Below, piece after piece: positions 22,439-60,011 of a stretch of DNA of 64,000 bases. Position 1 is the stretch's first letter. The number at the start of each line of letters is the position of its first letter. Origin of the DNA: Bacteroidota bacterium (lineage in GTDB: Bacteria; Bacteroidota; Bacteroidia; Bacteroidales; JAAAOM01); contig JAAAOM010000011.1 in assembly GCA_009908855.1 (NCBI GenBank), positions 52,974 through 116,973 of the forward strand, read 5' to 3'. The notes beneath the pieces were generated by a model that worked only from the letters and a program-made list of their open reading frames with translations, was not told the DNA's origin and searched no databases. The translations under genes and the position numbers were made by a program.

Positions 22439-24430
22439 TTAAGTATTTAAGCTTTTACCCAATATTTCGGTTACATCATCCTCTAAAAGCACTTCATTTT
22501 CAAGCAGGCGATTGGCCATTTGATCCAGTTTATCTTTGTGCTTTTCAAGCATTTCACGTGTTTCATTATAACAATCGTTAATGATACCCTGGGCTTCGGC
22601 ATCAATTACCTGCTCGGTTTTTTCAGATCGCTTATCTACCATTAACTGATTGCCCAGCATTTCATTTTGGTTTTGCTTTTTAAATGATACGTTGGGCAGT
22701 TTTTTGCTCATGCCATATAATGTAACCATGTTGTAAGCCATCTGGGTCACCTTTTCCAGGTCGTTTGCCGCCCCGGTTGATATATCCCCGAAAATAAGAT
22801 CCTCAGCTGCTCGTCCGCCTAGCAATCCTTTGATCTTGCCCCGGATTTCTTTTTCAGACATTAAAAACCGGTCTTCCAGGGGTGTTTGCATGGTAAAACC
22901 TAAAGCGGCAACCCCCCTGGGCACGATGGATACTTTTTGTACCGGGTCAGCGCCCGGGGTATAATGCCCCACAATGGCATGGCCTGATTCGTGGTAGGCC
23001 ACAATTTTTCGTTCTTTTTCGTTGATCAGGCGGTTTTTCTTTTCCAAGCCGGCAACAATGCGCTCAATAGCTTCCTGTAAATCGGACAATTCAACTTCGT
23101 TTTTGTCCTTTCGTGAAGCCCATAAGGCGGCTTCGTTACAGATATTGGCCAGGTCGGCGCCCGAGAAACCGGCTGTATTGGCAGCTATTTTATGCAGGTC
23201 TTCTTCATTGGCCAGCTTGATATCTTTGGTATGTAGCTTAAGGATATCGTAGCGGCCTTTTTTATCCGGGCGGTCAACCATTACCTGTCGGTCAAAACGG
23301 CCGGGCCGCAGCAGTGCTTTATCCAATACTTCCGGCCTGTTGGTGGATGCCATAACAATGATGGTATCGTTGGCGGTAAAACCATCCATTTCAGATAGCA
23401 GTTGATTTAATGTATTTTCACGTTCATCATTGGCGCCCATTTGTACATTTTGTCCGCGACTTTTACCTATGGCATCCAACTCATCGATAAAAATGATACA
23501 AGGTTGTTTGCTTTTGGCCTGCTTAAAGAGATCGCGCACGCGTGATGCACCTACACCGACAAACATCTCAATAAATTCAGAGCCGGTAAGGCTAAAAAAG
23601 GGCACATCGGCTTCACCGGCTACAGCCCTGGCCAGCAATGTTTTTCCTGTACCCGGAGGGCCAATCAGTACGACTCCTTTTGGTAATTTGCCGCCCAGTC
23701 GGGTAAATTTTTCAGGTGTACGCAGAAATTCAATCATTTCCTTCAATTCTTCTTTGGCTTCATCTACCCCGGCAACGTCTTTAAAGGTAACATCGTTTTC
23801 CTTGCTTTTAACATGCATTTGGGCTTTGCTTTTTCCAATATTAAAGGGGTTTTGCATACCTCCGGCTCCCCCGCCCATTGTTTTACTCATGCGACGAATA
23901 ATGAAAGCCCATATCAGAATGAAAAACAAAATAGGAATGATCCATCCCAGTGCTTCACGCCAAAAGGTGTTTTCCACACGGCCTTCATAGTTAACATTGT
24001 ATCTTTCAAGCTGATGGATTAAGCTGTCATCCTGCACACGAACGGTTACAAAATCATAACCTTCACCACCGGAGGCCTTTTGACGTATGCTTTCAATTTT
24101 AGGCATTGTGTCGGGTTGCGGCATACCACGGGTATCAAATCGTTGATATCGTCCCATGATTTCATTTTTTCCGATACTCACTTTTTCGATGGCACCAGAT
24201 TTCAGCGTGTCTTTAAAAGTCTTATAACTTATTTCATTGGTTTGCTTAGGATAAAAAAACCATTGTATAACTATGAAAACACCTATGAATGCAAGATAAT
24301 GCCAGATTTTTATCCGTGGCCCCCTGCCTGGTTCCTGGTTTAAATAATCATTACCAGTGTTTTGTTGGTCTTGCTGTTGCTTGTTGTTCTGTTGATCTTG
24401 TTGCTTTTGTTGCTTTTGTTGCTTTGCCAT
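22439..24430 (-). CDS. ftsH: ATP-dependent zinc metalloprotease FtsH
   Basis: 663 aa. Walker A GPPGTGKT, Walker B IIFIDELD, an SRH region and the HESGHA zinc motif. Unusual Q/K-rich N-terminal tail. Confidence 0.95.
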
Positions 24431-49217: not shown

Positions 49218-49490
49218 ATGATAACAATGAGTAACGAGGATAAAGAAAATAAAAGAAAGAAAAAGGAAGAAGAGGAAATAATTGATGAGTTGAATGAATT
49301 TTCGGAAGACACGAAATCCAATCGGCATCATCAAAAAAAGGACAAGGTATATATTGTTAATCGCCAAAAAGAGAAAGAGCAAAAAGTGGAGGATGAAAAC
49401 GATGATATTAAAATCAATGAACATATTGATGAGCAAGATGTATCTAAGAAAAAAGAAAAGGGCGATGAGGATGATCCCAATTCAGCATAA
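49218..49490 (+). CDS. Small hyper-charged (K/E/D-rich) disordered protein, hydrophilin-like
   Basis: 90-aa ORF, the longest of three overlapping ORFs in a purine-rich stretch. The strand and frame choice is uncertain. Confidence 0.4.
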   Translation: MITMSNEDKENKRKKKEEEEIIDELNEFSEDTKSNRHHQKKDKVYIVNRQKEKEQKVEDENDDIKINEHIDEQDVSKKKEKGDEDDPNSA

Positions 49491-53349: not shown

Positions 53350-54594
53350 CTATTGTTTTCCATGATTTTTATTTTGTGAACGGGATTTATTCTTAGGGTG
53401 GTTTTTCTTATTGTAATTTTTTCTTTTTCCCCTGTTCTGATTGGGCATTTCCCACTCCGGCCCTTCACCCAATTCCGGAGGTAATGGGATTTTCATTACT
53501 TCGGCTTCAATCAGTTTCTCGATGCGATGAAATTTATAGATATCATCCTTATTCACAAAAGTTAAGCCCACACCGGTTGTTGATGCCCGCGCTGTTCGTC
53601 CGATACGGTGAACATAATCTTCCGCATCACCCGGCACATCGTAATTGATTACCAGATTAATATCCTGAATATCAATACCACGACTTAGCACGTCCGTTGC
53701 AACCAGCACTCGTGTATTTTTGGCTTTAAACCGGTTCAATACTTCTTCTCTTTCATCCTGTTCCAAGTCAGAGGACATGGCTTCTACAGTGAAGTCATTT
53801 CGTTTTAAGTCCCGCACAATTTGGGCTACTTTTCTTTTGGTTGAGCTAAATATGAGAATGGATTTATAATCCGGCTTATCACTAATAAGCTTATTAATGA
53901 GTTCGTTTTTTTGTTGGTCATGAATTAAATAGGCAGCCTGCAGCGCACCCTCCGCTGGTTTCGATACGGCTATACTTATTTCAACCGGATTGGTTAATAT
54001 TTTGTTGGCAAATGTTTTGATTTTGGGCGGCATGGTTGCACTGAACAGCAAGGTTTGTCTTTGCTTGGGAACATAAGAGATGATTTTCATAATATCATCA
54101 TGAAAACCAATATCTAACATCCGGTCGGCCTCGTCCAAAATCAGGTACTTGATTTCATCGAGCTTGGCGTATCCCATGTTCAGATGGGATATTAATTTTC
54201 CCGGGGTGGCGATAATAACATTGCAGCCCGATTTTAATGCCCGGCGTTGTGCTTCCCAGTCATCTCCCTGTCCGCCTCCCACAATCGATGCGGATGTAAT
54301 ACCTGCCATATAACCGATGCCTTGCACCTGTTGGTCTATTTGCAAAGCCAATTCACGTGTCGGAACAATTATTAAAGCATCTGTTTTGTTGCTTTTATGG
54401 GTCATTAACTGATCCAGCAGTGGCAATAAAAAGGCAGCTGTTTTGCCAGTTCCGGTTTGTGCACAGGCTATTAAATCGTTTCCTTTCAGTATTTCAGGAA
54501 TGGCTTTTTCCTGTATCGGGGTAGAATCCTCAAATCCCATATAAGAAATAGATTCAAGCAATTCATCCTGCAAATCAAATTCGGTAAATTTCAT
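53350..54594 (-). CDS. rhlE: DEAD-box ATP-dependent RNA helicase (RhlE-like)
   Basis: Q-motif, AQTGTGKT, DEAD, SAT and HRIGRTAR motifs. Basic C-terminal tail. Confidence 0.93.
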   Translation of the reverse strand: MKFTEFDLQDELLESISYMGFEDSTPIQEKAIPEILKGNDLIACAQTGTGKTAAFLLPLLDQLMTHKSNKTDALIIVPTRELALQIDQQVQGIGYMAGITSASIVGGGQGDDWEAQRRALKSGCNVIIATPGKLISHLNMGYAKLDEIKYLILDEADRMLDIGFHDDIMKIISYVPKQRQTLLFSATMPPKIKTFANKILTNPVEISIAVSKPAEGALQAAYLIHDQQKNELINKLISDKPDYKSILIFSSTKRKVAQIVRDLKRNDFTVEAMSSDLEQDEREEVLNRFKAKNTRVLVATDVLSRGIDIQDINLVINYDVPGDAEDYVHRIGRTARASTTGVGLTFVNKDDIYKFHRIEKLIEAEVMKIPLPPELGEGPEWEMPNQNRGKRKNYNKKNHPKNKSRSQNKNHGKQ

Positions 54595-54935
54595 GAAATA
54601 ATCGTGTATCTTCTTTTCAATAAAAATTATTACAAAAATAATGTAAAGTTGGTGGCCATGGTCAGGTGTTAATAAAACTTTATGAACAGATGGTTGGGTA
54701 AACGATCATTATGCATCGATCCATAGTCACTTTCTGGTTTTATGGCTTCTTTTGCGTGTCGCAATTTCAATATAATTCCTGTTAATCATAGAAAAATATA
54801 ACCCAAGATTGGTTTTGTTAACAGTCCAAAAACAATAAACGTTTGAAGTAACCATAAAGTTTGAATAAATTTGACTGAATTTTTGATATGTCTAAGTTTC
54901 GATGTAAAATTGTTAAAAATAAATTCCAAAAAATC

Positions 54936-55517
54936 ATGAAAAAAATACTCAGTCTTTCTCTGGTCGTGCTAATGATGGCAGGATGTTATAATTCCCGTAA
55001 GGTTTCACGGGTGGATCCGGATAAAACAATTGATTTAAGTGGTCGCTGGAATGATACCGATTCTCGTTTGGTAGCCGAAGAAATGGTGCGTGATGGCTTG
55101 TCCCGACCGTGGTTGGAGCGATTTACCGAAAAAGCTGGTGAACGTCCGGTTGTAATTGTGGGGGATATTAAGAACAAGACAAGCGAACATATCAGTACCG
55201 AAACATTTATTAACGATATCGAAAGGGAATTTATAAATTCCGGTCAGGTACGTGTTGTTCAGGGTGGTGAAGACCGCGAGCAGATGCGGCAGGAACGTGC
55301 CGATCAGCAGGAGTATGCGTCTCAGCAAACTATGAACCAGTGGGGGCGAGAAATGGGCGCTGATTTTATGATGACTGGTTCGGTAAATTCGGTAACTGAT
55401 CAGTATGGAAAAGATAAGGTGGTGCTCTACCAGGTCGATCTTGAGCTATCCGATTTGGAGACCAATGAAAAAGTGTGGATTGGAAATAAGAAGATTAAAA
55501 AGACTATTCAGGATTAG
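54936..55517 (+). CDS. lpoB: LpoB-like lipoprotein (penicillin-binding protein activator family)
   Basis: Start at ATG 54936 gives the signal peptide MKKILSLSLVVLMMAGC. The pattern W..TDS..VAEEMV...VVIVGDIKNKT...ADFMMTG...L.L.D.ET.E.VW matches the LpoB fold family as I remember it. Confidence 0.65.
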   Translation: MKKILSLSLVVLMMAGCYNSRKVSRVDPDKTIDLSGRWNDTDSRLVAEEMVRDGLSRPWLERFTEKAGERPVVIVGDIKNKTSEHISTETFINDIEREFINSGQVRVVQGGEDREQMRQERADQQEYASQQTMNQWGREMGADFMMTGSVNSVTDQYGKDKVVLYQVDLELSDLETNEKVWIGNKKIKKTIQD

Positions 55518-55533
55518 TGTGGTGAGAAGGGGG

Positions 55534-55967
55534 AGTGGGGAGTGAGGAGTGGACAGTGGGCAGTAAGCAGTAAGCAGTAAGCAGTGAACAGTAAGTAGTG
55601 GGGAGTGAGGAGTGTACAGTAAGTAGTGAACAGTAAGTAGTGGGCAGTGAGGAGTGGACAGTAAGTAGTGAACAGTGAGCAGTAAACAGTAAGTAGTGGG
55701 GAGTGAGGAGTGTACAGTAAGTAGTGAACAGTAAGTAGTGGGCAGTGGGCAGTAAACAGTAAGTAGTGGACAGTGAGCAGTAAACAGTAAGTAGTGAGCA
55801 GTGGGCAGTAAATAGTGAACAGTGAACAGTAAGTAGTGAACAGTAAGTAGTGAACAGTGGGCAGTAAACAGTGAGGAGTGGACAGTAAGTAGTGAACAGT
55901 GAGCAGTGGGCAGTAAATAGTGAACAGTAAGTAGTGAACAGTGTACAGTAAATTGTGATCAGTATGG
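55534..55967 (+). repeat. Tandem heptanucleotide array, 62 units of AGTRRRN, strictly in phase
   Basis: Counted by hand: 434 bp = 62 x 7 with no indel, and 60/62 units start with AGT. Unit counts are AGTAAGT x13, AGTGAAC x11, AGTGGGC x7, AGTGAGG x5; AGTAAAC, AGTGAGC and AGTGGAC x4 each; AGTGGGG, AGTGTAC, AGTAAGC and AGTAAAT x3 each. 16 nt of degenerate repeat precede it (55518-55533). The last unit, AGTATGG, holds the downstream ATG. Confidence 0.97.
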
Positions 55968-56368
55968 AAAAGAAATTGGGTTATGCGGGTAGTTTTAAGG
56001 AATTGGAAGTGTATAAGCAGACACGGGAATTGGCGAGGATTATTTTTGAATTGACAAAGACTTTTCCTAAAGAGGAGAAATACTCACTGACTGATCAGAT
56101 AAGAAGATCCTCACGTTCAGTTGGAGCACAGATTGCTGAAAGTTGGGGTAAAAGAAGGTATGAGAAACACTTTATTTCAAAAATGACTGATGCGGATGCT
56201 GAACAATACGAAACGCAACATTGGATAGAGGTAGCTTACGAAAACCGGTATATTGATCAAAATACAAAGCTGGAATTAATTGATAAGTGTGAAGGGATTG
56301 GAAAAATGATTGGATCAATAATCGATAAATCTTTTCAATTCTGTAAGAAGTATAAAACTGTCTCATGA
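55964..56368 (+). CDS. Four-helix-bundle protein (23S rRNA intervening-sequence protein family; DGR Avd-like)
   Basis: 134 aa from ATG 55964. F.ELEVYKQ...LA..I...T..FPKEEKYSLTDQIRRSSRSVGAQIAE.W.... and E.Q.WIE.A is the hallmark pattern of this family. Confidence 0.88.
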   Translation: MEKKLGYAGSFKELEVYKQTRELARIIFELTKTFPKEEKYSLTDQIRRSSRSVGAQIAESWGKRRYEKHFISKMTDADAEQYETQHWIEVAYENRYIDQNTKLELIDKCEGIGKMIGSIIDKSFQFCKKYKTVS

Positions 56369-56488
56369 TCCTGAACATCAATGTACCTGGTAAAAATATT
56401 CCACTCAACGGTCATGGCTTATTGCTCACTTTTACTATTTACCTCAATTAAGAAACATCATGTTAATGTATACGCAAAACACATATAA

Positions 56489-57898
56489 ATGCTGAAATCC
56501 CATACCATCAAACTAGTTTTTCTTTGGGTTTTATTGTTCGTAGTTTTTGGTTGTGCGACTTATTACACCAAAAATCTGGAGTTCCAACAGCAGTTTGCCA
56601 CTGGTAATATTGAAGAAGCCGATAATACTCTCGAGAAACTGGAGAAAAAGGTAAAAGACAAAGATCGGATTTTGTATTACCTTAAAAAAGGAGTGGTGGA
56701 GCAAATGCTGGGTAATTACGAGAAGAGCAATGAGGTTTTTGAACAAGCCTATTTTTATTTTGAGGACTACCGAAAAAAGCTGGCTACGGAAGCCTTGAGC
56801 TTAATCACCAATCCGGCCATAAAACCATACAAGGGAGAAGATCACGAAATTGTACTTCTTCATTATTATAAATCCATCAACTTTATTATGATGGGTCGGT
56901 ATGACGATGCCCTTGTTGAGTGTCGTCGTCTGAATAACAAACTCAATGCGTTGCAGGACAGGTATGAATATAAGAATTATCGTTATAAATCTGATGCCTT
57001 TGTCAATAACCTTATGGGTATCATCTACGAGGCTAACCGTGATGTTAACAATGCCTTTATAGCTTACCGGAATGCTTACAATACATACAAAAATGTGTAT
57101 GCCCCCAATTATAACGTATCGGTTCCACACCAGTTAAAAGAGGATTTATTACGAACGGCCTATCTCAATGGATTCAGAGAAGAGCTGCGCCAGTATGAGA
57201 AAGCGTTCAGCATGAACTATGAACCGCCGGAAAATAAAAACACGGGAGATTTTGTGTTTTTTTGGCACAATGGACTTGGACCGGTTAAAGATGAATGGAG
57301 TATTAATTTTGCCATCCAGCGTGGACAGGGTGGAACGGTAATGTTTGTAAACGATGAGCTCGGATTAAGTTTCCCGTTTGTGCTTTCAGGTGATGGTAGC
57401 GGATCGTTAAGTGATTTGAAATTTATAAGGGTAGCATTTCCTAAATATGTTGAGCGCAAACCGATCTTTAATAGCGCCTATCTCAATATCGACAATAAAA
57501 AGGTACAATTGGACAGGGCGCAGGATATAAATCAGATCGCCTTTAAATCACTTGAGGACCGAATGTTGCGTGAGTTAGGAACATCATTGTTACGCCTGGC
57601 CCTAAAACAGGCTGCTGAGGCTCAGGTGCGAAAAGAAAATCAAAACCTCGGAATGTTGGTATCAATCATGAATGCAGTAACCGAAAAAGCCGATACCAGA
57701 AACTGGCAGACATTACCTTATTCAATATGGTACACAAGGATTCGATTACCAGAAGGCGACCACAGGGTGCGATTGAATACGCGCGAACCCGGTCAGGTGA
57801 ATGAGGCAGCCAATTTGAATGTAAATATTCGCAACAACCATACTACATTTTATTTATACCATAGCCTGGAAAGCTATGCACCCAATATTTCTCAGTAA
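56489..57898 (+). CDS. Large TPR-like lipoprotein (hypothetical; likely functional partner of the LpoB-like gene)
   Basis: 469 aa. Lipobox VVFGC and N-terminal TPR-like helices (LYYLKKGVVEQMLGNYEKSNEVFEQA). Confidence 0.75.
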   Translation: MLKSHTIKLVFLWVLLFVVFGCATYYTKNLEFQQQFATGNIEEADNTLEKLEKKVKDKDRILYYLKKGVVEQMLGNYEKSNEVFEQAYFYFEDYRKKLATEALSLITNPAIKPYKGEDHEIVLLHYYKSINFIMMGRYDDALVECRRLNNKLNALQDRYEYKNYRYKSDAFVNNLMGIIYEANRDVNNAFIAYRNAYNTYKNVYAPNYNVSVPHQLKEDLLRTAYLNGFREELRQYEKAFSMNYEPPENKNTGDFVFFWHNGLGPVKDEWSINFAIQRGQGGTVMFVNDELGLSFPFVLSGDGSGSLSDLKFIRVAFPKYVERKPIFNSAYLNIDNKKVQLDRAQDINQIAFKSLEDRMLRELGTSLLRLALKQAAEAQVRKENQNLGMLVSIMNAVTEKADTRNWQTLPYSIWYTRIRLPEGDHRVRLNTREPGQVNEAANLNVNIRNNHTTFYLYHSLESYAPNISQ

Positions 57899-58022
57899 GC
57901 AATAAAGGTTTAGTAGTCAGCACGATGACGGCTTTGTTTTAAACAATCACGACCATAAATTGCAGATAACCTGTGATATCACTAATTTTGTGCACGCAAC
58001 CAAACCAGTTTATTGAACGCAC

Positions 58023-60011
58023 ATGGAATTGGATATACTACGTGACATTGTAATCATATTTGCCCTCTCCACGCTTGTTAATTTTATTTTTACCAAAATA
58101 AAAGTACCCACAATAATCGGTTACCTGCTTACGGGAATAGTAGCAGGCCCTTATCTCTTCGGTATTATACATGCTCCTCATCAAATTGAGCTGATGGCAG
58201 AGATTGGCGTAATTTTGCTGATGTTCACCATTGGTTTAGAATTTTCTCTGAAGCATTTGTTACGTATTCGGAGGATTGTTTTTCTGGGTGGTTTTCTGCA
58301 ATTGATACTCACGGCATTTATTACCCTGTTTATTGCCAAAGGATATGGCATGGAATGGAAAAATGCCCTGTTCATGGGGTTTATAACAGCATTGAGCAGT
58401 ACAGCCGTCGTATTAAAGTTGCTGCAGGAACGCTCTGAAATTACCTCAAATTATGGTCGTACAGTATTAGGGATACTTATTTTTCAGGACGTGATACTGG
58501 TTCCTTTATTGCTTTTTACACCCATTTTAGGTGGCGAATCGGCTGATATGGCATCGGAATTTTTATGGTTGGGTGTCAAGGCCATAGGCATAATGGGATT
58601 TGTTTATGTTGGAAATAAATGGCTTATGCCCAAATTGTTACACTGGATTGCGCTGACCAAAAATCAGGAATTATTTTTAATGAGTATATTACTAATTTGC
58701 CTGTCCGTTGCGCTATTAACCTCTAAACTGGGTATGTCGCTGGCTTTTGGTGCATTCCTGGCCGGACTTATGATTTCCGAATCCAATTACAGTCACAATG
58801 CCTTTGGACACTTAATTCCATTTAAAGATACATTTACCAGTTTCTTTTTTGTATCCATCGGTTTATTGCTGGATGTTAGCTATGTGATTGACAACTGGTT
58901 GCTGGTATTGAGTACCGTGGCTATTGTGCTGGTAGTAAAGACTATCATCGCCGGTGGTACAGCCTTTATACTGGGGCATACCTTTAAAGGAACGATGATG
59001 GTTGGCCTGGCGCTCAGTCAGGTGGGTGAGTTCTCATTTATCCTGGCCAAGCTGGGAGTTGATTACAATTTACTATCCGGTCATTTTTACCAGTTGTTTT
59101 TAGCAGTGGCTATTATTACCATGTCACTCTCGCCGTTTTTAATAACAGTGGCGCCCAGGGTAGCCAATTTATTTCTAAGGCTACCATTGCCGCAGTCGGT
59201 TGTGGAAGGATTATTTCCATTAAAGCAAGTTGAAATACCGATTATGAAAAATCACCTGGTATTGATCGGCAAGGACTCTCGTGCGCTAAACCTTTCACGC
59301 ATGGCCCAACATATTAAATTACCACATGCCTCTATTGTATTTGATCCGGCTCTTGCCCGAAAAAGGCAGGAACAAGGTGATACCGTTGTTTATGGCGATG
59401 CGGTGAATGAGCCGATTCTTGAAAAGGCTCATGTGGAACATGCCGAAACAGTGGTGATTTCTATTGGCGATCTAATAACGGCTATGGCTGTTGTTGAAAA
59501 GGTGAGACTTATGAACAAGCATGCATTCATCATTGTGCGAACCAAACATGTGCATGAAATTAATGAGTTGTATAAACTAGGTGCTAACCAAGTAATTCCC
59601 GAGGAGTTTGAAACCGCTATTGACCTGTTTGAGCGTGTATTGAAAAAATTGTTGCTGCCCAAAGGTGAGATTGAACGTATAGCTGCCCATATACGCGATG
59701 ATCATTATGGCATATTCAGAGAGGAAATTGAAAAATCATCTGATGATGTTTTCAATGAATTACCCAATATCGATATTAGTGCAGTACGCATTGAAGATCA
59801 ATCATTTTTAATTGAAAAAACCTTGCGTGAAATGAATTTTAGAAAAACTTTTGGTGTAACATTGGTTGCCGTTAAACGCGATGACAGAATCATTGAACAT
59901 CCTGATTCACGAATGAAGTTTAAACAGGGGGATGTGGCATATATCCTCGGTAAACCAGACCAGATTGCCAATGCCACCGAATTATTCAGCAGGGCAGAGA
60001 TTGAGAATTAA
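58023..60011 (+). CDS. CPA2-family cation:proton antiporter with RCK (TrkA-N / TrkA-C) domains
   Basis: 662 aa. Na_H exchanger TM domain, then a Rossmann-like LVLIGKDSRA region and a C-terminal TrkA-C-like segment. Confidence 0.85.
   Translation: MELDILRDIVIIFALSTLVNFIFTKIKVPTIIGYLLTGIVAGPYLFGIIHAPHQIELMAEIGVILLMFTIGLEFSLKHLLRIRRIVFLGGFLQLILTAFITLFIAKGYGMEWKNALFMGFITALSSTAVVLKLLQERSEITSNYGRTVLGILIFQDVILVPLLLFTPILGGESADMASEFLWLGVKAIGIMGFVYVGNKWLMPKLLHWIALTKNQELFLMSILLICLSVALLTSKLGMSLAFGAFLAGLMISESNYSHNAFGHLIPFKDTFTSFFFVSIGLLLDVSYVIDNWLLVLSTVAIVLVVKTIIAGGTAFILGHTFKGTMMVGLALSQVGEFSFILAKLGVDYNLLSGHFYQLFLAVAIITMSLSPFLITVAPRVANLFLRLPLPQSVVEGLFPLKQVEIPIMKNHLVLIGKDSRALNLSRMAQHIKLPHASIVFDPALARKRQEQGDTVVYGDAVNEPILEKAHVEHAETVVISIGDLITAMAVVEKVRLMNKHAFIIVRTKHVHEINELYKLGANQVIPEEFETAIDLFERVLKKLLLPKGEIERIAAHIRDDHYGIFREEIEKSSDDVFNELPNIDISAVRIEDQSFLIEKTLREMNFRKTFGVTLVAVKRDDRIIEHPDSRMKFKQGDVAYILGKPDQIANATELFSRAEIEN

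Follow-up and report, generated by a model that had tools for sequence, protein, structure and literature searches.

The 64,000-nucleotide stretch of DNA analyzed here (the window) belongs to a contig of a Bacteroidota metagenome-assembled genome (MAG) of the order Bacteroidales. Near its end, an lpoB-like lipoprotein gene and a large lipoprotein gene of the COG3014 family lie on the same strand, separated by 971 bp. The original prediction, made from the sequence alone, read this spacer as a repeat array, a 405-bp open reading frame (ORF) for a four-helix-bundle (4HB) protein, and about 120 bp of trailing sequence, together forming a small mobile cassette inserted into an operon. Its coordinates for both lipoprotein genes and for the spacer were all correct, and our annotation divides the spacer into the same three parts (Table 1).

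Table 1. Features of the lpoB-COG3014 locus, in window coordinates
Feature	Position	Strand	Basis or remark
Candidate Bacteroidota-type -7 promoter box, TAAATTTG	54866-54873	+	upstream of lpoB; consensus match only, weak
lpoB-like lipoprotein gene	54936-55517	+	upstream host gene; PF13036, TIGR02722, lipobox LMMAGC
5' heptad array (5' arm), ~63 units of CAGTRRR	55518-55963	+	period-7 detection, Tandem Repeats Finder
4HB protein gene, 134 aa, 405 bp	55964-56368	+	PF05635, TIGR02436 (23S rRNA IVS protein family; IVS, intervening sequence)
Spacer between 4HB stop codon and 3' arm remnant	56369-56416	+	no recognizable feature
Degenerate 3' inverted-heptad arm, ~4 units, out of phase through a 1-nt deletion	56417-56446	+	alignment to L162 arm
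Probable leftover of the native lpoB-COG3014 spacer, ~42 nt	56447-56488	+	inference from empty sites
COG3014-family tetratricopeptide repeat (TPR)-like lipoprotein gene, 469 aa	56489-57898	+	downstream host gene; lipobox VVFGC

Anatomy of the spacer

The heptad array spans 446 bp and fills the entire stretch between the lpoB stop codon and the ATG of the 4HB gene, in a single phase and with zero indels over its ~63 units. Read as C-A-G-T-R-R-R, 61-62 of the 63 units keep each of the A, G, and T, and the sense strand is 72% purine. The three forward frames of the array contain 60 stop codons, and the opposite strand has one stop codon and zero start codons. Tandem Repeats Finder additionally reported longer periods (28, 42, and 98 bp), a sign of block duplications within the array. 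No other period-7 array was detected in the 64-kb window, and the same detector set to periods 5, 6, 8, and 11 found nothing across it. The length of the array comes from a short-read MAG and may be mis-assembled, with its junctions backed by an independent assembly described below; the boundaries of the arms are uncertain by 10-20 nt. An Rfam search of positions 55300-56700 gave no meaningful match, and the cassette does not lie inside a 23S rRNA gene (helix 25 or 45).

Profile matches clearly place the ORF in PF05635/TIGR02436, the family of proteins encoded in 23S rRNA intervening sequences (IVSs). Its product matched PF05635 with an E-value of 7e-32 (110.2 bits against a cutoff of 33.8, covering profile positions 1-105 of 106) and TIGR02436 ('four helix bundle protein') with an E-value of 2.4e-30 (105 bits against a cutoff of 24). 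A four-helix-bundle fold is predicted from homology to two proteins in the Protein Data Bank (PDB), 2GSC (XCC0516; E 3.1e-8) and 2RLD (E 2.8e-7). Weaker matches were found to Avd, the accessory protein of diversity-generating retroelements (DGRs), namely to bAvd PF22296 (E 9.7e-13) and to NF033474 (40.5 bits, under its cutoff of 80). A comparison of 23 homologues showed many invariant residues, and a tblastn search of the window with the 4HB protein returned the gene itself alone. The family is large, with 8,148 clusters at 50% identity in a whole-library search (E up to 0.001). To our knowledge, no function has been assigned since 1993 to this IVS or 'S23p' four-helix-bundle family.

Insertion into a conserved gene pair

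The two host genes are normally close neighbors. The upstream gene matched the Pfam family LpoB (PF13036, E 7.6e-47) and scored above the cutoff of the TIGR02722 equivalog (120.9 bits against 110.55), which together with the lipobox LMMAGC identifies it as a member of the LpoB family. The COG3014 label of the downstream gene is taken from the source naming of close homologues ('COG3014 family protein'), and the identical protein has already been recorded for a Bacteroidetes MAG. In 80 COG3014 loci collected by an alignment-based search of one-genome-per-species contigs, lpoB was directly upstream on the same strand in 78, and the remaining two contigs are cut or without lpoB. The adjacency in other bacteria that the original prediction mentioned is thus borne out. 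The gap between the two genes has a median of 56 bp and is at most 186 bp in 77 of these 78 loci, with one outlier at 885 bp. A 4HB homologue within 5 kb of COG3014 was found at 0 of the 80 loci, so the intervening gene is not one that all relatives carry. Empty sites, which the original prediction proposed to look for, are present in the next-closest relatives (L001, L169, L170, and L171; 64-66% identity), where AT-rich gaps of 13-26 nt separate the two genes. A target duplication, which the same comparison could have revealed, was not visible at the junctions, though divergence is high.

The closest relative that we found, with a COG3014 protein 75% identical to that of the window, comes from sample SRR12687296 and is split over two short contigs, L162 and L161. 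On L162, an lpoB gene with the same C-terminus is followed by about 10 heptads (CAGTGAA/CAGTAAG), a 4HB gene with 83% amino acid identity, and a 3' arm of clear inverted heptads (CACTGTT and variants). The duplex computed between the two arms of this relative has an energy of -44.7 kcal/mol, compared with -18.3 +/- 4.8 kcal/mol for shuffled sequences, and 0 of 200 shuffles were as low. The locus breaks at the 3' arm, and L161, probably the continuation of the same locus, begins shortly before COG3014. At positions 30-70 of L161, upstream of COG3014, lies a terminator-like hairpin with a T-run behind it (AACCCTGG...CCGGGGTTCTTTTTT), and the window has no counterpart of it.

The comparison with the empty sites shows that the cassette is an insertion into a normally tight gene pair; it occupies the short lpoB-COG3014 spacer, directly behind the stop codon of lpoB. 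Because the relative on L162 carries it after lpoB at the same site, the cassette was probably inserted once, in an ancestor of the window MAG and the L162 lineage, and has been retained since. The shared site, together with a dS of ~1.15 between the two 4HB genes, indicates an insertion that is old, not recent. The dN/dS of 0.085 for the same pair shows that the 4HB gene is under purifying selection.

Two other lpoB-COG3014 spacers are unusual. The 885-bp gap belongs to a CSSED10-310 MAG (L025, 1843-2729) and holds an ORF of ~280-309 aa and no repeats. We considered it as a second cassette and rejected it, as the ORF resembles a periplasmic solute-binding protein and the gap reflects an independent, unrelated insertion. 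In L065 (4890-4960), a 110-nt spacer contains three AAAGTAC heptads followed by a perfect 20-bp heptad palindrome (GTACAATGTATTAGGTACAA ... TTGTACCTAATACATTGTAC), a gene-less heptad hairpin in the same spacer that the cassette occupies in the window.

The relative also gives meaning to the 120-bp tail of the window copy, in which the original prediction had noticed degenerate heptads in inverted orientation. The string quoted for positions 56418-56446 is exact, but its match to inverted heptads is not above chance when taken alone. Folding with RNAfold pairs 56417-56446 with 55872-55911 (30 bp), and shuffled tails form a mean of 21 and a maximum of 36 pairs, so that this pairing is not above chance. 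The gapless complementarity of the window arms is 22/35, and RNAduplex placed the whole 5' array against the tail no better than against shuffles (5/60) or random 120-mers (12/60). The tail does align with the 3' arm on L162: CTCACT-TTTACTATTTAC against CTCACTGTTCACTGTTTAC gives 16/19 matches with a 1-nt deletion, a score equalled by 19 of 500 shuffles. A decayed remnant is a credible description of the window 3' arm only through this comparative evidence, and because the arm has decayed, the predicted 'inverted ends' of the window copy rest on the comparison and not on its own sequence.

Heptad arms around related genes in Bacteroidota

We evaluated the generality of this arrangement in 80 metagenome loci with 4HB proteins 59-78% identical, which are the best-scoring hits of one subfamily. 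The thresholds of the period-7 detector are arbitrary; control periods and control loci behaved as expected. We detected 125 period-7 arrays in 280 kb of 4HB loci versus 8 in 795 kb of COG3014 control loci, and almost nothing at other repeat periods in the 4HB loci. Ninety-nine of the 125 arrays were within 150 nt of a 4HB gene. Among the 68 4HB genes with at least 150 nt on each side, an array was found at the start of 43, at the stop of 40, at both of 32, and at neither of 17. In 27 of 37 cases, the consensus heptad downstream reads as the reverse complement of that upstream (e.g., GGTAATC upstream and GATTACC downstream). Inverted complementarity between the arms of a locus exceeded direct complementarity (p = 4e-10) and also exceeded that of arms paired across loci (p = 4.5e-4). 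All 13 cassettes that we folded, chosen for having both arms, formed 24-74 arm-arm pairs enclosing the ORF. Other copies thus share the ends expected of them, an upstream heptad array and an inverted downstream array.

The position of these cassettes relative to their hosts is also consistent. In 58 of 62 cases the 4HB gene shared the orientation of the gene before it (p = 5.5e-6 against a 70% null), and in 37 of 47 that of the gene after it. Relative to the stop codon of the upstream gene, the 5' arm starts at a median of -8 nt; the 3' arm ends at a median of 35 nt ahead of the next ATG. Hosts among the metagenome loci include HlyD-AcrB and ABC2-ABC2 operon pairs. The cassettes thus usually sit downstream of a host gene and in its orientation. 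Thirty-eight of 52 upstream arms carried a C-R-G core on the sense strand, and 34 of 50 downstream arms carried it on the antisense strand, where random heptads would give 16%. Since the register was picked after viewing the data, we regard this core as a lead and not as a test; it hints at a recognized motif beyond mere complementarity.

Several further observations were made in these loci. Twenty-six of the 125 arrays lie away from a recognizable 4HB gene (in L084, L085, L090, and L093; e.g., L093 2488-2624 and 4978-5154). Some of these stray arrays are paired after other genes, and they may be gene-less relics or the arms of decayed copies. Partial second 4HB hits are present in L084 (3480-3722), L091 (907-1053), L098 (15-293), and L103 (2324-2482). 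Public contigs carrying close 4HB homologues are mostly just 0.5-2 kb in length, which suggests, as a practical consequence, that assemblies of short reads routinely break at the flanking arrays and that the cassettes are therefore under-represented in MAGs. A scan of viral contigs for 4HB relatives confirmed nothing.

The same architecture in other bacterial groups

Homologues on cyanobacterial plasmids, with 31-57% identity, had arms in 11 of the 11 loci examined. These arms consist of purine-rich 7-8-nt repeats upstream (GCAGGGG, GCAGAGGA, GGGTGTA) and their complement downstream. In Azospirillum lipoferum, a plasmid copy (L172, 1140-1620) lies within an Rfam large subunit (LSU) rRNA match, the positive control for the Rfam search of the window cassette, and, being inside the 23S rRNA gene, is a genuine 23S rRNA IVS. 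CAGAGGA/CGGATGA heptads stand before its PF05635 ORF and inverted TCCGTCC/TCTGTCT heptads after it; this ORF is absent from the gene table of the plasmid. The Coxiella IVS is reported to carry three or four GACAGAT heptads ahead of its S23p ORF, with an RNase III site at the first heptad repeat, and in vitro RNase III did excise it (PMC4990558).

In the Xanthomonadales, a search with a fragment of XCC0516 of Xanthomonas campestris, which represents the family in structural genomics, as query identified an orthologue between accB and accC in six lineages (L180 1424-1872, L182, and L184-L188), which comprise two Xanthomonas species, Rhodanobacter, Dokdonella, Luteimonas, and a Dyella-like genome. 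The gene is flanked by 4 + 4 GGGAATC-type heptads, one set per side and inverted. RNAalifold predicts a 24-bp terminal stem around the ORF, made of four 6-bp segments with every seventh position unpaired. In this stem, 95.8% of the cells are paired and 5 pairs are compensatory, compared with 22-70% and at most one compensatory pair in slid-partner controls. The change from GGGAATC to GGGATTC in both arms of Rhodanobacter is one compensatory example. With n = 6, the covariation is supportive of a stem, not conclusive. The arm of the XCC0516 cassette is the same GGGAATC repeat that has been published in Xanthomonas as a 'G-quadruplex repeat'. That repeat is highly enriched, occurs as 70 inverted pairs in Xanthomonas campestris with a preference for four units, and is found between co-directional ORFs, with most copies transcribed (PMC4692102).

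When rotated to begin with C, the heptads of these groups can be read side by side: CAGTRRR in the window, CGGTAAT as the commonest in Bacteroidota, CGGGAAT in Xanthomonas, CAGGGGA in Nostoc, CAGAGGA/CGGATGA in the Azospirillum IVS, and CAGATGA in the Coxiella IVS. Two phage DGR Avd genes, used as a negative control, had no flanking repeats. The loci surveyed show that the architecture of purine-rich 5' heptads, an ORF, and an inverted 3' array is usual in the gene family and has a fixed polarity, both in rRNA IVSs and between protein-coding genes, in four bacterial groups. Individual copies have been reported elsewhere, as a PF05635 gene within a cas operon, between cmr3 and cmr2 of Pleurocapsa (PMC3936711), and as a cassette of this kind at guanylate kinase-nadD in Flavobacterium columnare (PMC5524665).

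Proposed explanation and alternatives

We consider it probable that the 971-bp spacer is an IVS-type cassette, comprising a 4HB gene and its heptad arms, that was inserted into the lpoB-COG3014 operon and follows a design found family-wide. The cassette would have no promoter of its own and would be transcribed by read-through from the lpoB promoter. Read-through is proposed because the array leaves no space for a promoter ahead of the ATG and because the sole non-ORF match to TAnnTTTG in 54501-56600 is the box 5' of lpoB (54866-54873). It is further supported by the co-orientation of the cassettes with their upstream genes, the start of the 5' arm at the upstream stop, the location of cassettes within operons (HlyD-AcrB, ABC2-ABC2, accB-accC, and cmr3-cmr2), and the reported transcription of most Xanthomonas GGGAATC repeats. 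In intact copies, the arms would pair in the transcript to form a long stem enclosing the ORF. Such a stem could serve as an RNase III substrate, as in rRNA IVSs, and its cleavage would free the 4HB message and disconnect the two host cistrons. The arms would lengthen or shorten by replication slippage in 7-nt steps, yielding ~63 units here and ~10 in L162, and the 3' arm of the window copy would have decayed. The shared CRG-purine heptad core might be a recognition site, possibly for a pentameric 4HB protein.

Several observations weigh against this explanation. The 3' arm of the window is too degenerate for an above-chance stem, and because of this degeneration RNase III-type processing may no longer work at the window copy. 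An arm asymmetry as extreme as 63 versus ~4 units is not predicted by a pairing model. Among the Bacteroidota cassettes, 17 of 68 are without arms and 8 of 37 have arms in direct orientation, including some tandem cassettes. As a test for RNA-level pairing, G-U arm mismatches numbered 42 against 28 for A-C (p = 0.12), and covariation between arms at the A/G heptad position was not significant across Bacteroidota loci (Fisher p = 0.53). The comparison sets are biased, being one subfamily's best 80 loci and small samples outside Bacteroidota. No within-species presence/absence polymorphism, target-site duplication, or mobility enzyme was found at the cassettes, so the term 'mobile' rests on the phylogenetic distribution. 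The long vertical stability, seen here and in the Xanthomonadales, fits a domesticated host function equally well. As for the original suggestion of a mobile cassette without its own recombinase, the second half holds in that no recombinase or reverse transcriptase is nearby, and the mobility itself is inferred and not observed.

A domesticated host module is a serious rival, on account of the long vertical retention and the purifying selection, and we give it a modest but real chance. The 4HB protein and the arms would then act as a post-transcriptional regulator or insulator between co-transcribed genes, with the arms as operator sites, for example by uncoupling the stability or translation of the flanking cistrons. 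Strong purifying selection (dN/dS 0.085) would be expected of such a module, as would vertical retention at one site, both here and in six Xanthomonadales lineages where the arms are kept with compensatory changes. The conservation of the CRG heptad core across phyla and the stop codons of the arms in all three frames also fit. Against a host role, the operons that carry the cassette are unrelated to each other (lipoproteins, efflux pumps, ABC permeases, accBC, cas genes, and rRNA), nearly all lpoB-COG3014 operons do without it, and we found no link here between the 4HB protein and the function of neighboring genes. The Coxiella S23p ORF, furthermore, is reported to be decaying and probably untranslated (PMC4990558). 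The inverted arms at both ends would alternatively allow for an element moving at the DNA level, similar to a miniature inverted-repeat transposable element (MITE), in which the arms are terminal inverted repeats for a transposase acting in trans, or hairpins or cruciforms for excision and insertion, and the 4HB gene is cargo. Gene-less heptad hairpins do occur, including the one in the lpoB-COG3014 spacer of L065, Xanthomonas campestris has 70 inverted GGGAATC pairs (PMC4692102), and the comparison of G-U with A-C mismatches favors RNA no more than DNA. We nevertheless judge a transposon improbable. No transposase was near any examined copy and no target-site duplication was seen, and arms of 4 to >60 units whose sequence differs by locus do not resemble the defined ends of a transposon. 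The strong preference for the strand of host transcription (58/62) and the constant polarity, with the purine-rich arm upstream and on the sense strand, instead argue for a constraint at the level of the transcript.

Two further explanations were rejected as highly implausible. The weak matches to PF22296 and NF033474, and the report that PF05635 is the Pfam family most often co-occurring with DGRs (PMC10053308), raised the idea that the 4HB gene is an Avd gene that survived the loss of a reverse transcriptase and of the template and variable repeats. Its scores for PF05635/TIGR02436 are far above those for the Avd models, and the same architecture exists in rRNA IVSs and at accBC where there is no DGR. 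The four genes flanking the cassette (~51.7-61.1 kb) encode an ABC-F ATPase, a DEAD-box helicase, a Na/H exchanger with TrkA domains, and CorA, and no recombinase, transposase, or reverse transcriptase is among them. The missing reverse transcriptase and the two bona fide DGR Avd genes, which are armless, largely refute a DGR remnant. It could also be imagined that the array and 4HB gene were wrongly joined to lpoB and COG3014 by assembly or binning of short reads, given that tandem arrays break such assemblies, that many 4HB contigs are under 2 kb, and that L162 and L161 are split at the 3' arm. The same lpoB-array-4HB junction is nonetheless found on L162, in an independent assembly of another sample, the array units are varied enough to provide unique k-mers, and both junctions are inside a single 126-kb contig, leaving only the copy number uncertain.

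Beyond the IVS-type cassette at this locus, we tentatively raise a broader possibility, to which we give clearly less credence. PF05635 genes and inverted CRG-purine arms may together be one phylum-spanning, self-contained element, consisting of a protein and its own cis sites, in which a 4HB pentamer binds the arms and drives maintenance, expansion, or spread. Such an element would colonize transcribed spacers behind stop codons, with rRNA IVSs as one niche, and the short tandemly repeated repetitive (STRR) sequences, the GGGAATC repeats, and the Bacteroidota heptamers would largely be its arms or gene-less relics.

Relationship to described elements

The closest known counterparts are the 23S rRNA IVSs with an S23p/PF05635 ORF of Leptospira, Coxiella, Brucella, and Azospirillum. 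Their ORF belongs to the same protein family as the window gene, is enclosed by stem-forming inverted terminal repeats, and, in Coxiella and Azospirillum, has purine-rich heptads just before it, and the element travels as a passive passenger in a host transcript with no mobility gene. The IVS comparison offered in the original prediction therefore turns out to be stronger than an analogy, with the same protein family and, in the Azospirillum 23S IVS, the same arms. The differences are that the window copy occupies the spacer of a protein-coding operon and not helix 25 or 45 of 23S rRNA, that the IVS stem is ~28 bp whereas the window has a 446-bp 5' array and a decayed 3' arm, and that excision by RNase III has been shown experimentally only for rRNA IVSs (PMC4990558). 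XCC0516 (2GSC) is similar in being a homologous 4HB protein (E 3e-8) encoded in a co-oriented gene inside a tight operon with inverted heptad flanks. Its GGGAATC arms are short, symmetric (4 + 4), and conserved, unlike the very unequal CAGTRRR arms of the window.

The arms also resemble families of heptameric repeats that are published as free-standing elements. The GGGAATC and GGGGA(C/T)T repeats of Xanthomonas and Nostoc (PMC4692102) are, like the arms, intergenic, of period 7, and of variable copy number, and so are the TAACTGA repeats of Beggiatoaceae, Cyanobacteria, and Bacteroidetes (PMC4679880); such repeats lie preferentially between co-directional genes. Unlike the cassettes, these were described as G-quadruplex formers or translational operators, and many enclose no gene. 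According to a term search, neither of the two papers mentions S23, 'four helix', or a flanked hypothetical protein (PMC4692102; PMC4679880). Small intergenic elements such as repetitive extragenic palindromes (REPs), bacterial interspersed mosaic elements (BIMEs), and MITEs share the inverted symmetry, the lack of a mobility gene of their own, and the tolerance within operons. They differ in having a fixed palindrome or terminal inverted repeat, where the cassettes have variable-length tandem heptads enclosing a conserved gene, and we saw no association of the cassettes with REP-associated tyrosine transposases (RAYTs) or insertion sequence (IS) transposases. Period-7 repeats are likewise found in the STRR heptamers of cyanobacteria, reportedly described by Mazel et al. 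in 1990.

Avd is a known pentamer former. The DGR protein bAvd (PDB 4DWL) belongs to a related four-helix-bundle fold family, and PF05635 is structurally related to Avd (PMC10053308). The window differs from a DGR in having neither a reverse transcriptase nor a template or variable repeat and in Avd scores below the cutoff, and the two DGR Avd genes examined are armless.

Parts of this picture have been published, namely the IVSs with an S23p ORF and inverted ends, the heptads of the Coxiella IVS, the heptamer repeat families, and PF05635 genes in cas operons. Among the literature that we found, the paper on the Coxiella IVS alone reports 3-4 heptads ahead of the ORF (PMC4990558). Our literature search, which was incomplete and leaves a prior description possible, found no paper that joins the PF05635 family in general with flanking inverted heptad arrays, and none that presents the cassette in protein-coding operons as a general rule. 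The combination ties together two puzzles, the S23p family without a function and the heptamer arrays of cyanobacteria, Xanthomonas, and Bacteroidota, by treating gene and repeats as one unit of constant polarity that lies behind a host stop codon within operons or rRNA. One consequence is that the routine reading of a 4HB gene as functionally linked to its operon, as at cas loci, is probably wrong. The accB-XCC0516-accC locus of Xanthomonas provides a culturable carrier with an existing crystal structure and opens the way to direct experiments.

Other features of the window

A scan of 54600-58200 for sigma-70 promoters and intrinsic terminators gave counts at or below the shuffled expectation and was thus uninformative. 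Two other repeats in the window are unconnected with the cassette: a weak period-10 signal at 49220-49282 and a period-9/27 repeat (TTGTTGCTT) at 24358-24425.

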